NCBI GenBank assembly: GCA_025325205.1
Contig: GCA_025325205.1_4770.1
Strand: one strand, 5' to 3'
DNA: 52,259 bases
DNA from: a phage
Of this stretch, positions 1 through 32,139 are shown piece by piece. The translations under genes were made by a program, and so were the position numbers. The first letter of the stretch is position 1, and every line of letters begins with the position of its first letter. Below the pieces are notes generated by a model. That model ran no database searches. It saw nothing but the letters and a program-made list of their open reading frames with translations, and had not been told where the DNA came from.

Positions 1-53
1 TGAGAATAAAGACTATATTCCAATCCCAGTTCGGCGACACTTATAACCCCTTA

Positions 54-488
54 CTATGCCATGTGGATACCCGCGAGCAAGACTTCATCAGAATAAGGTT
101 GTACACCGTTCTCATGTTTAATAATCGCTTTCACGATCGCAAGCATGAGCTTATCATCGGTCAATGAAATCGGCTGTTCTGCACCAACACCACAAGCCTT
201 AGACACAGATTGAATATAGGCTTCAGTGTTATTTTCATTCGGCGGAGCCCAGCGTGAAATAATTTCCCGTACAGTGTCAATTCCCTTATTACCGACGCGC
301 TTCATCCCTTCGCGGTTGCGGTAGTTTAGTAGAATACGCGCAATGGCGCGAATACCGTATTTTACATCGATAAATTGACAGAAAGAACGGTCAGTTCGTT
401 TATCTTCTGGAACAAGACCTTTCCAGTTATCACCCCAACGAATATTTCCAGGATTGTTATTCCGGATGCCTCGTGGTTGCACAGTCAT
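54..488 (-). CDS. putative endolysin (peptidoglycan hydrolase), family not assignable by eye
   Basis: 144-aa ORF, last gene of a minus-strand block with an overlapped spanin pair directly upstream; call rests on gene context only. Confidence 0.3.
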   Translation of the reverse strand: MTVQPRGIRNNNPGNIRWGDNWKGLVPEDKRTDRSFCQFIDVKYGIRAIARILLNYRNREGMKRVGNKGIDTVREIISRWAPPNENNTEAYIQSVSKACGVGAEQPISLTDDKLMLAIVKAIIKHENGVQPYSDEVLLAGIHMA

Positions 489-579
489 AAAAAAGCTCCA
501 TTCAGTTAAACCGAATAGAGCATAGTTGAATTATCACACGCGCACAATCAATTATGTGCGATTAAGATTGAACGTTTAG

Positions 580-924
580 TTACGCAATCCGGCAAGGACT
601 TTGCAGTTTATCACCTTTCTTTATGCGGATTTCGCATTGCATCATATTGTAGTTCGCACTGCTCGCCGGCAAGACGATACTTTTCAGCCTCTTCTGCCAC
701 TTGTCTGTATTCTGTGACGCTTTCTGAATACAGCTCGGTGAGCACACGGGCGATCTGGGCGGTTGTCTTGCTGTCGGGCTGAGGGCCGGTAGCGTCACCG
801 AGGTACTTACGGATGGTTGCGATTTCGTTGTGCAACCTGTCATTAGTAGCACGATAATCATTAAGATCGGCAACCAAAGACTCAATGCGAGATTGGTACT
901 GGCGTTCGATAACGTCTTTCTCAT
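580..924 (-). CDS. o-spanin (Rz1-like outer-membrane lipoprotein) in alternate frame overlapping the i-spanin gene
   Basis: Internal ATG (reverse complement of cat at 922-924) gives MRKTLSNASTNLALSLWLPILMIIVLLMTG-C: basic n-region, hydrophobic core, lipobox-like MTGC, then Pro/Ser-rich mature part; frame differs from 611-1111 and runs past its stop. Confidence 0.45.
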   Translation of the reverse strand: MRKTLSNASTNLALSLWLPILMIIVLLMTGCTTKSQPSVSTSVTLPALSPTARQPPRSPVCSPSCIQKASQNTDKWQKRLKSIVLPASSANYNMMQCEIRIKKGDKLQSPCRIA

Positions 925-1111
925 ATGCTCTTCGTTTCTCCTCCTCGAAATCAACCGCTTTCTGAGTTTCTTTTTGGTACGACACACCGGCATCGAAACC
1001 CTCCTTTCTAGCTGTTTCTATGGCATTGTCATAAGCCCAGTTGGCTAGAATAACAATTAGGACAAGTGGTATCCAAGGTGCAACCAAACCGATTATTTTT
1101 CTAAGGAACAT
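611..1111 (-). CDS. i-spanin (Rz-like)
   Basis: 166 aa; N-terminal hydrophobic helix (IIGLVAPWIPLVLIVILANWA) followed by charged, coiled-coil-like periplasmic region; contains the o-spanin ORF in another frame. Confidence 0.5.
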   Translation of the reverse strand: MFLRKIIGLVAPWIPLVLIVILANWAYDNAIETARKEGFDAGVSYQKETQKAVDFEEEKRRAYEKDVIERQYQSRIESLVADLNDYRATNDRLHNEIATIRKYLGDATGPQPDSKTTAQIARVLTELYSESVTEYRQVAEEAEKYRLAGEQCELQYDAMRNPHKER

Positions 1112-1320
1112 ACCTTCTCACCAATTCCCATAGACAAGTATTGAATCGCAAGAAGAAATGCTATAGCTTCCTTCGTATCCCCTAAGTCTTTAAAGGCCTT
1201 GAATTTATCTTCAAGTTGCTGTACGTGCTTCTCGAATTGTGGCAAGGCCTCAATCTCAGCGGCAGCTCCGCGCATATACACTCTTGCAGCCGCTAATTGT
1301 GCGTTAGAAGGATCACTCAT
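1093..1320 (-). CDS. hypothetical protein (possible holin/antiholin-type small protein)
   Basis: 75-aa ORF directly upstream of spanins; one hydrophobic stretch (AIAFLLAIQYLSMGIG); ATGA-type overlap with upstream ORF. Confidence 0.3.
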   Translation of the reverse strand: MSDPSNAQLAAARVYMRGAAAEIEALPQFEKHVQQLEDKFKAFKDLGDTKEAIAFLLAIQYLSMGIGEKVCSLEK

Positions 1321-1532
1321 GATGTTCTCCAGATTACACTATTTCGAATTTCATCATTCCAAACGTATTTCCCCTTCTCACCATTTTTATAGGATGGAAC
1401 AGAGAAAACGGAGGAACTTGGATATAGATCTGATGTTGTTAAGCGTATACGCTTACCGTCAAAAGGTCCACCAACACAAAGGAACAGACCAGTCTTAGGT
1501 TTCTTCAAAATGGTTCCTCCTCTGTTGTACAC
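1317..1532 (-). CDS. hypothetical protein
   Basis: 71-aa ORF filling the gap between neighbouring minus-strand genes; no motif recognised. Confidence 0.25.
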   Translation of the reverse strand: MYNRGGTILKKPKTGLFLCVGGPFDGKRIRLTTSDLYPSSSVFSVPSYKNGEKGKYVWNDEIRNSVIWRTS

Positions 1533-1999
1533 TGAGCCATTTTAAGAGTATAAGCTACGTCATAGAAGTCAACACCTTGACCACAGCTATCGCAGTAGTG
1601 GCAGGCCAATCTCACAGCCTCTTCTGCGCCGCGACCTGCCGCCATTGTACCCATCAAGAACTCAAAGGCACTACCCTCGGCAATAAATTCATTAGTGTCT
1701 GGTAGACCTAATTTACCATCCCCATAGATAGGATACACGACAAGTTCCTGCGTCACTGCAATACCATAACGCGAATCCGGAATTAAATCAGAGAAAGGTT
1801 CTTTACGACCACGAACCGTAGTTTTCAGATGTTCTACAATGTCACTTACAGGACGTAGTTTACCAGACATTGCAACAAGGCACAGTCCAATCCCTGGAAT
1901 ATTGACAGTATGAACTTTATCTGTAGTTGTTGCAATATTACCCCATGTAACCTGACGATCTACTGCCAATATACCATTACGATAAGCAATTGCGGTCAT
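1505..1999 (-). CDS. putative HslV/proteasome-like Ntn-hydrolase (threonine peptidase family)
   Basis: Starts MTAIAYRNGILAVDRQVTWGN, resembling the HslV N-terminus (Met-Thr then hydrophobic strand, RNG, GDxQ/TxGN pattern) as I recall it; Gly-rich GSAFEF...AAGRGAEEA segment later. Confidence 0.35.
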   Translation of the reverse strand: MTAIAYRNGILAVDRQVTWGNIATTTDKVHTVNIPGIGLCLVAMSGKLRPVSDIVEHLKTTVRGRKEPFSDLIPDSRYGIAVTQELVVYPIYGDGKLGLPDTNEFIAEGSAFEFLMGTMAAGRGAEEAVRLACHYCDSCGQGVDFYDVAYTLKMAQCTTEEEPF

Positions 2000-30589: not shown

Positions 30590-31582
30590 ATGGATTTACT
30601 TGATGCTTTAAAGTTTGTTCAGGGTTCTGTAGCTAAGAAAGAACTCCAGGAAGGTTTAACTCACTTCCGTATTGTTGATGGTACTGTTCGCGGGTTCAAC
30701 GGAACTATTTCATTGTGTAGTCCAGTACCACTGAACATTGACTGTACACCGAAAGCCGAACCGATGCTCAAGGCTATTGCAGCATGTGACGAAGCTGTAC
30801 AGATGACAATGTTAGCGAACGGTAAGTTGAGCATTAAGTCTGGTGGCTTTAAGGTCAGTGTAGACACTCTTCAGAAACCAACTGCGCACGTAGAGCCAGA
30901 AGGAACAATTCACGAAATAGACGGTCAGCTTTTTCTCAACGGTTTAAGCCGCGTAACGCCGTTTATAAGCGACGATGCTTCCCGCCCGTGGTCTTGCGGC
31001 GTGCTGGTAAAACAGGGCAGCATGTACGCAACCAACAACGCTAGTATTATACAATATTGGTTCGGTGCTGTATTCCCTGTCGATTGTGTTGTGCCACGTA
31101 TGGCCATCAAAGAATTATTGCGTATTAAAAAGCCACCAGTAAGAATTCAATGTACAGATACCAGTATGACATTTCACTACGAAGACGGTTGCTGGTTGCG
31201 TACCCAATTGCTGGAATTAAAGTGGCCCAACATTGACAAGATAATCGAGCGTACAGAAAAGGGGTCTGACGTCTATACGCTTGATACTGAGCTTTTTAAC
31301 TGCTTAGAGAAAATAAAACCGTTCTGTGAACGTGATGGGCGTATCTACATGGAAAATGGTGTTGTGCGCACCCATTACAACGAGCTGGATGGTGCTAGTG
31401 CAATGTTCCGTGAATCTAAGTCAATTGGCGTGTATAATATAGATCTCATTATGCAGTTGAAAGGACTTGCAACGGACTGGGATGCCTCTCGTTTCAATGA
31501 AAAGGACGAAAGGGGTCTTTCAACTCCTATTATTTTTTATGGTGAAAATCTACGTGGGGTAATTGTAGGATTTCGTCTATGA
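30590..31582 (+). CDS. DNA polymerase sliding clamp (beta-clamp/DnaN-like)
   Basis: FISDDASRPWSCGVLVKQG...YATNNASII resembles the beta-clamp domain-II signature (F-x-S-x-DE-x-RP-x-L-x-GVL ... ATDG-RLA); N-terminal GTVRGFNGTISL like the clamp GTD strand; about 330 aa. Confidence 0.5.
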   Translation: MDLLDALKFVQGSVAKKELQEGLTHFRIVDGTVRGFNGTISLCSPVPLNIDCTPKAEPMLKAIAACDEAVQMTMLANGKLSIKSGGFKVSVDTLQKPTAHVEPEGTIHEIDGQLFLNGLSRVTPFISDDASRPWSCGVLVKQGSMYATNNASIIQYWFGAVFPVDCVVPRMAIKELLRIKKPPVRIQCTDTSMTFHYEDGCWLRTQLLELKWPNIDKIIERTEKGSDVYTLDTELFNCLEKIKPFCERDGRIYMENGVVRTHYNELDGASAMFRESKSIGVYNIDLIMQLKGLATDWDASRFNEKDERGLSTPIIFYGENLRGVIVGFRL

Positions 31583-32139
31583 GAAAAGCATTGCCGTTAC
31601 CGCCGTACACTTATCTTCATGAGTGCTTCGACTATAACGAAATTACTGGTGTCCTCACATGGAAAGTGAGGCCCTCACATCATTTTAAATCCGAAAGAGC
31701 TCGAAAGATCGCAAACACACTATTTTCTGGAAAACAAGCTGGAAATGTTGTCACATGTAGTGGTAAGAAATACTTACAAGTTACAATAGATAGAAAATTA
31801 TATCTTGTTCATAGAATTTGTTATAAAATGTATTATAACAAAGAACCGACTGTAATCGATCATGACGATGGAAATGGACTTCACAACTGGATATTAAACT
31901 TAAATGATGGTACAATGTCCGACAATATGAAAAACAGGAAGATGTTAGAATGCAATTCCACTGGTGTTACTGGTGTGAGTCTGACTAAATTAGGGATGTG
32001 GAATGCACATATAATGGTTGGATATAAGGGTTATAATCTATATACAGGCCCTGATTTGTTTGAAGCCTGTTGTGCTAGAAAATCCGCTGAACTATTATAT
32101 GGTTTTAATAAAAATCACGGTAAAGAGAGAAATCTATGA
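31579..32139 (+). CDS. HNH homing endonuclease with AP2-type DNA-binding domain
   Basis: IDHDDGNGLHNWILNLN (HNH core) and GVTGVSLTKLGMWNAHIMVGYKGYNLYTGPDLFEACCARKSAEL (AP2-like); AT-rich relative to flanks; ATGA overlaps on both sides. Confidence 0.7.
   Translation: MRKALPLPPYTYLHECFDYNEITGVLTWKVRPSHHFKSERARKIANTLFSGKQAGNVVTCSGKKYLQVTIDRKLYLVHRICYKMYYNKEPTVIDHDDGNGLHNWILNLNDGTMSDNMKNRKMLECNSTGVTGVSLTKLGMWNAHIMVGYKGYNLYTGPDLFEACCARKSAELLYGFNKNHGKERNL

Follow-up and report, generated by a model that had tools for sequence, protein, structure and literature searches.

Two overlapping reading frames in a 9g-like (Nonagvirus) coliphage as a probable two-component spanin

Close to one end of this phage DNA two reading frames overlap on the same strand, which raises the question of whether both are genes, what their products would do and whether such a pair has been described before. 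The window (the whole analysed stretch of 52,259 nucleotides, contig GCA_025325205.1_4770.1) carries the two frames at 580–1111. A sequence-only reading had placed an ORF at 611–1111, a second frame beginning at an ATG at 922–924 and an extension of that frame by 31 nt past the Rz-like stop, and had interpreted the two as a two-component spanin. All of these coordinates hold, both genes lying on the minus strand, and the smaller one ends with a TAA at 582..580, beyond the stop of the larger one at 611..613. The spanin interpretation also stood, with PHROG and Pfam matches, annotated homologous pairs, endolysin and holin neighbours and the SpaninDB entry for phage 9g behind it. We consider it very probable that the locus encodes the two-component spanin of a Nonagvirus (9g-like) coliphage, an identity backed by the ORFs, signal features, family membership, conservation in both frames and lysis-cluster context.

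Gene inventory and genomic setting

The features of the locus, in window coordinates and with the evidence for each, are as follows.

611..1111, minus strand: i-spanin (Rz-like) gene, 166 aa (ORF list, phrog_312, Pfam DUF2514, annotation in Bas19 and Bas20).
1040..1096, minus strand: predicted transmembrane segment of the i-spanin, IIGLVAPWIPLVLIVILAN, residues ~6–24 (Kyte-Doolittle hydropathy; a basic MFLRK stretch precedes it).
656..658, minus strand: codon of i-spanin Cys152, in the motif AGEQCELQYD (unchanged throughout the family in the alignment).
580..924, minus strand: o-spanin (Rz1-like) gene, 114 aa, in the +1 frame of the i-spanin (phrog_11621; coordinates match the o-spanin CDSs of relatives).
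835..924, minus strand: predicted lipoprotein signal peptide of the o-spanin, residues 1–30 (n-region MRK, long hydrophobic core, lipobox L27-M28-T29-G30).
832..834, minus strand: codon of Cys31, with which the mature o-spanin is predicted to begin and which would carry the lipid (alignment and IMG/VR pairs).
730..783, minus strand: conserved core of the mature o-spanin, LSPTARQPPRSPVCSPSC, residues 48–65, with a C-x3-C pair (alignment of eight).
580..648, minus strand: C-terminal tail of the o-spanin, residues ~93–114, with two extra Cys, highly variable (alignment and stop offsets).
991..1006, minus strand: alternative upstream start in the o-spanin frame (AAGGAGG at 1006..1000, 6-nt spacer, ATG at 993..991).
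54..488, minus strand: endolysin gene (phrog_873, E=1.7e-63; endolysin annotation in relatives).
1..40, minus strand: first 40 nt of a holin gene cut by the window edge (holin annotation of the homologous CDS in ESCO3, ChristophMerian and HdSG1).

Nonagvirus comprises 9g-like siphoviruses of the subfamily Queuovirinae that infect Escherichia coli and Salmonella. The first 2.4 kb of the window were 93–97% identical to 18 records, representing 13 distinct phages of this genus, the closest being Escherichia phage vB_EcoM_PD328 (96.7% over the same 2.4 kb). By this identity the source phage is a Nonagvirus, a 9g-like coliphage.

The o-spanin ORF runs from the ATG at 924..922 to the TAA at 582..580 (114 codons), and 314 of its 345 nt (91%) lie inside the i-spanin gene, the last 31 nt lying past the stop of that gene (611..613). 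In total the alternate frame has 145 open codons, among them an earlier in-frame ATG (993..991). The endolysin gene follows 91 nt downstream of the spanin pair and the holin comes next; the gene cut at the window start is a LydA-type holin by its annotation in relatives. Since the endolysin (54..488) and then the holin lie downstream of the pair on the coding strand, the order of the lysis cluster is spanins, endolysin, holin.

Pfam was searched with the o-spanin, the endolysin (144 aa) and the neighbouring products, and none of them gave a match. A promoter scan returned fewer sigma-70-like sites than shuffled sequence did, and none that was useful for the spanin genes. Upstream of the i-spanin, a 75-aa ORF of unknown function (1093–1320, minus strand; phrog_19774, E=4e-51) shares 19 nt with the start of the i-spanin gene, and within the first 1.4 kb variation is highest in this stretch. 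A homologue of the HslV-family peptidase (1505–1999, minus strand; phrog_1040, E=1e-33) is encoded three genes upstream of the spanins, and its position is conserved in Nonagvirus and in phage K9PH25C2.

Predicted proteins and the start of the o-spanin

The 166-aa i-spanin begins MFLRKIIGLVAPWIPLVLIVILANWAY. It has one hydrophobic segment (residues ~6–24; maximum 19-residue Kyte-Doolittle mean of 2.42, at residue 6), preceded by basic residues, which bears out the N-terminal transmembrane helix proposed for the product of 611–1111. The protein matched PHROG 312 "Rz-like spanin" over nearly its full length (E=3e-41, residues 9–162) and Pfam DUF2514 at 47.2 bits against a cut-off of 26 (E=3e-12). 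The AlphaFold2 single-sequence model had a mean pLDDT of 87, with helices at residues 2–10, 13–105 and 114–160 and a break at 106–113 (GDATGPQP). In this model the layout is transmembrane domain, helix, linker, helix, as is usual for i-spanins, and the protein is predicted to be a type II inner-membrane protein with two long periplasmic helices and a short linker. Its sole cysteine, Cys152, is invariant across eight distant relatives in the alignment.

The o-spanin has the N-terminus MRKTLSNASTNLALSLWLPILMIIVLLMTG followed directly by the lipobox cysteine. A lipoprotein-like signal (MRK, hydrophobic core, MTG-C) had been read in the second frame, and the product passed PROSITE PS51257, with the Cys at 31, K/R in the first 7 residues and no charge in the 6 positions before the lipobox. 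Hydropathy of the signal reaches its maximum of 2.39 at residues 12–30. Among close relatives no other part of the gene varies as much as the signal peptide, which nevertheless remains hydrophobic. The lipobox is L-M-T-G/C, with Thr at +2; there is thus no inner-membrane retention signal, and sorting of the protein to the outer membrane would fit. Met at −3 had been called unusual, which is fair against the strict consensus [LVI][ASTVI][GAS]C (Kongari et al. 2018, PMC6139136), yet PS51257 permits Met at this position, and LLMTGC is kept in 20/20 distinct Nonagvirus copies (the window, 13 GenBank relatives and six IMG/VR contigs).

The mature protein would have 84 residues. Pro, Ser and Thr make up 57% of the first 35, and nine of the 84 are Pro, in agreement with the Pro-rich segment described after the signal. 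Beyond the lipobox cysteine it has four further Cys, including the C-x3-C pair (C61 and C65). The o-spanin matched PHROG 11621 "Rz-like spanin" over residues 20–95 (E=1.5e-20).

One point missed in the sequence-only reading is the earlier in-frame ATG (993), which has the better Shine-Dalgarno site. At this ATG an AAGGAGG with a 6-nt spacer forms an anti-Shine-Dalgarno duplex of −12.1 kcal/mol that ends 5 nt before the ATG. The ATG at 924 has a strong AGGAG site (−11.7 kcal/mol), which lies about 13–14 nt from the ATG and is therefore poorly spaced, so that the exact o-spanin precursor is uncertain. The precursor might start wholly or partly at 993..991, giving 137 aa with a strongly basic 23-residue extension, MPVCRTKKKLRKRLISRRRNEEH; we judge this unlikely, and the points in its favour are suggestive only. 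Such a start would leave the mature lipoprotein unchanged, and would refine the spanin explanation and not exclude it.

The placing of the Shine-Dalgarno site (ending at −5 for ATG 993 and at −14 for ATG 924) argues for the upstream start. So does the distant Queuovirinae phage K9PH25C2 (Klebsiella), which has the same two ATGs with the stronger site upstream (−10.0 versus −4.3), and ATG 993 is kept in K9PH25C2-like contigs despite a change of Rz from FDAG to FNDG. However, the AAGGAGG and the ATG are also accounted for by the conserved Rz motif KEGFDAGV. Diversity over 925..1050 is very low among the Nonagvirus genomes, but it stays low upstream of the alternate-frame stop at ~1017 and is hence not specific to coding in the alternate frame. 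Identical codons are used at 53% of conserved Rz residues in the extension versus 39% further upstream, a difference that is not significant. Furthermore, the long form, with its Cys at 54, fails the position rule of PS51257, in more distant relatives just one start is plausible and it gives a short n-region, and expert curators (SpaninDB, BASEL) picked ATG 924.

Production of the o-spanin from both ATG 924 and ATG 993, the latter being the sole well-spaced strong Shine-Dalgarno site, seems to us slightly less likely again. If it were so, the lipoprotein signal peptide from the upstream start would be highly basic and, at 53 aa, unusually long, and the dual start might set the amount or timing of o-spanin export to the outer membrane, loosely like lambda S, whose dual start sets holin timing.

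The 925–1050 stretch itself (Rz codons ~21–62) has a pi of ~0.01, with about 3 of 42 third positions variable among the Nonagvirus genomes. It lies upstream of the annotated o-spanin start and partly outside the open alternate frame.

Coding in the second frame

Of the 13 Nonagvirus relatives in GenBank, 12 have the alternate frame open, as do six IMG/VR contigs. The exception, HdK1 (MK373794.1), has a 1-nt deletion at a site homologous to window position ~870 that breaks both frames. This deletion is either a sequencing error or the mark of a natural spanin-defective isolate, which would point to a pair that is dispensable in culture. It joins the first 80 Rz codons to the o-spanin frame, and the record annotates the 531-nt hybrid as a CDS.

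Using tblastn, the alternate-frame product was matched to 48 more distant phage records at <60% identity (31–55% among the matches listed), the hosts being Klebsiella, Salmonella, Escherichia, Enterobacter, Edwardsiella, Pectobacterium and Pseudomonas. Every listed match in an annotated record lay under a spanin or other lysis-gene annotation, some of them mislabelled as tail protein, and several of the distant matches carry an o-spanin annotation. Homologous pairs in other phages are annotated as I-spanin and O-spanin, with equal relative positions.

A +1-frame ORF with a lipobox (LMGC, LTAC, LGAC, LAGC or LTGC) was present in 7/7 distant relatives read, all of which have the core LSPxARQPxRSxxCxPxC in common. 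In the alignment of eight distant o-spanins the lipid Cys, P46, L48, A52, P55, C61 and C65 were invariant, and the lipobox Cys and C-x3-C motif are kept in phages that are only 32–41% identical. Among the IMG/VR contigs, 61/61 non-redundant pairs had the homologous +1-frame ORF, with the lipobox Cys in all 61. Over the same DNA, the window and its distant relatives share 38–44% identity in the o-spanin frame and 31–41% in the i-spanin frame. An unselected frame would not show such identity, which argues that the o-spanin frame is under selection.

The same constraint is visible in the Rz codons, whose third positions are the second positions of o-spanin codons. Variable Rz third positions numbered 5/61 in the mature-core overlap versus 209/552 in the flanking genes (Fisher p=7e-7; close relatives). 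The second frame suppresses synonymous change in Rz. Nucleotide diversity falls to 0.003–0.02 over 660..840, and the minimum of the locus is the conserved o-spanin core. At 13 positions a mutation could create a stop in the o-spanin frame while being silent in Rz, and no stop in this frame was found in any complete relative.

The length of the open frame alone is weaker evidence for a gene, as in synonymous-codon shuffles of Rz the alternate frame does stay open over long stretches (62 codons on average, 160 at most). Long open alternate frames also occur in other genes of the window, and synonymous diversity is low in the Rz stretch upstream of the overlap as well. These points would fit an alternate-frame ORF that is unexpressed, left open by A/G-rich Rz codons and conserved as a by-product of selection on Rz. 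We hold this to be highly improbable: the 145-codon open stretch was matched in only 13 of 5000 shuffles, the alternate-frame protein keeps 38–44% identity over DNA in which that of the host frame is just 31–41%, its product matches the PHROG o-spanin profile at the E-value given above, and the hydrophobic core, lipobox Cys and C-x3-C pair are kept in relatives whose signal-peptide sequence has diverged.

A unimolecular spanin was also considered and rejected, because there are two separate products, each with its expected separate signal.

Relation to known spanin pairs and to the lysis cluster

Pairs of this kind have been catalogued. The SpaninDB tables list a pair of architecture "ovl" for phage 9g (NC_024146), in which the i-spanin is the 166-aa "lysis protein" and the o-spanin is a CDS at 31319..31663, entered as unannotated and as a putative o-spanin, of 114 aa (84 mature) with the signal LMTG and four periplasmic cysteines (Kongari et al. 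2018, PMC6139136). In GenBank, ChristophMerian (Bas19) and FritzHoffmann (Bas20) have o- and i-spanin CDSs exactly homologous to 580..924 and 611..1111; these records come from the authors of the BASEL collection, who used the tool of the SpaninDB paper. As the pair is already in SpaninDB and GenBank, the finding is already known, and the feature is an ordinary, already catalogued spanin pair. Experimental work on the spanins of the Nonagvirus group was not found in the literature searched. Most other Nonagvirus records annotate the larger gene alone, calling it for instance "lysin", "lysis protein" or "Rz-like spanin". The result is of use mainly in annotation and has curation value, since most deposited Nonagvirus genomes still have no o-spanin CDS.

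The 9g, Bas19 and Bas20 pairs are orthologues of the pair in the window (92–97% nucleotide identity) and share with it the lengths of 166 and 114 aa, the +1 frame, the 31-nt extension, LMTG/C and four periplasmic cysteines. They differ from it by point substitutions only, for example N/D and A/V in the signal peptide and several in both C-terminal tails.

The pair also resembles lambda Rz/Rz1, having a type II i-spanin whose periplasmic part has two helical segments and a linker, a small outer-membrane lipoprotein that is rich in Pro and read in the +1 frame, a site in the lysis cluster and periplasmic Cys in both partners. The mature o-spanin begins with CTTKSQ, similar to the mature N-terminus of lambda Rz1, CTSKQS. 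Lambda Rz1, in contrast, is fully embedded and has 60 aa (40 mature), whereas the o-spanin in the window is longer, at 114 aa (84 mature), and continues beyond the Rz stop. None of the profile matches of the pair at E≤0.01 (PHROG, Pfam) was to a lambda-family model.

By analogy with lambda Rz/Rz1, the i-spanin (611..1111) would be anchored in the inner membrane by its one N-terminal helix, with its two long helices reaching into the periplasm. The o-spanin would be translated from the +1 frame of the i-spanin DNA (ATG 924 to the stop at 580) and exported by means of its lipoprotein signal peptide; cleavage and lipidation at Cys31 would follow, as would sorting to the outer membrane. The C-terminal regions of the two proteins would then bind across the periplasm, and the conserved cysteines may form disulfide bonds giving disulfide-linked dimers; C152 of the i-spanin and the four cysteines of the mature o-spanin would lie in the periplasm, available for intermolecular disulfides. 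Once the holin and endolysin have destroyed the cell wall, the spanin complex would fuse the inner and outer membranes and so complete lysis, as in lambda.

The wholly embedded, lambda-like architecture is not that of the window, where the o-spanin stop (580) lies beyond the i-spanin stop (611). The layout is like that of P2 LysB/LysC, the textbook overlapped pair, whose o-spanin likewise has its start within the i-spanin gene, in a different frame, and its stop past the end of that gene. The o-spanin in the window is nearly embedded (91% inside), however, and the likeness seen to P2 is one of layout.

Embedded pairs that are homologous were found in Salmonella phage Skate, Escherichia phage swi2, Klebsiella phages KLB22 and K9PH25C2 and Enterobacter phage Tyrion. 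They share with the window a DUF2514/phrog_312 i-spanin, its conserved C-x-x-Q-Y-D end and the +1 frame, and their o-spanins are homologous to that of the window in the lipobox and in LSPLARQPxRSxxCxPxC. Their o-spanin stops lie 14–47 nt before the i-spanin stop, whereas the Nonagvirus o-spanin is ~20 codons longer and overshoots it by 31 nt. Of the 61 non-redundant IMG/VR pairs, all in the +1 frame, 54 were embedded (o-spanin stop 14–47 nt before the i-spanin stop) and seven overlapped, namely six Nonagvirus pairs at +31 and one EKq1-like pair at +10. The C-terminal tail (580..648), which carries the gene past the i-spanin stop, is absent from the embedded relatives.

Present sequence data clearly make the Nonagvirus pair a member of a larger homologous family. 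As its o-spanin continues ~20 codons past the stop of the embedded relatives, its "overlapped" state is a small derived extension of an embedded gene. The better-supported conclusion is that the homologous family has both embedded and overlapped pairs, which would contradict a statement of the 2018 survey, where the 9g proteins were in singleton families and no family mixed embedded and overlapped pairs (Kongari et al. 2018, PMC6139136). A later paper on such a mixed family was not found in the literature searched, and one may exist. A switch between the two architectures can thus come about through a simple shift of the o-spanin stop, and homologous pairs that differ only in whether the inner stop comes before or after the outer one bear on the evolution of nested spanin genes. 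The family is also a clean example of purifying selection in two frames.

In the rest of the lysis cluster, the order on the coding strand (window 1–1111) is the reverse of that in lambda (holin, endolysin, spanins), and the terminase genes come next in relatives. The domain of the endolysin is also found by PHROGs in tape-measure, injection-transglycosylase and head proteins, and the labels of the gene differ among relatives (virion protein, structural protein P5-like or endolysin). A 12-bp hairpin, GCTCTATTCGGT-TTA-ACTGAATGGAGC (495–521, minus strand), and the T6 run after it (489–494) abut the endolysin ATG (488) and look like an intrinsic terminator. The intergenic RNA between the spanins and the endolysin has a folding z of −3.7. 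Among 11 close relatives the hairpin is all but unchanged (one has a single-base difference and a T-run that is shorter), in contrast to the variable upstream part of the intergenic region. As the GGAG of the endolysin lies within its 3' arm, the hairpin may terminate spanin transcripts or gate translation of the endolysin.
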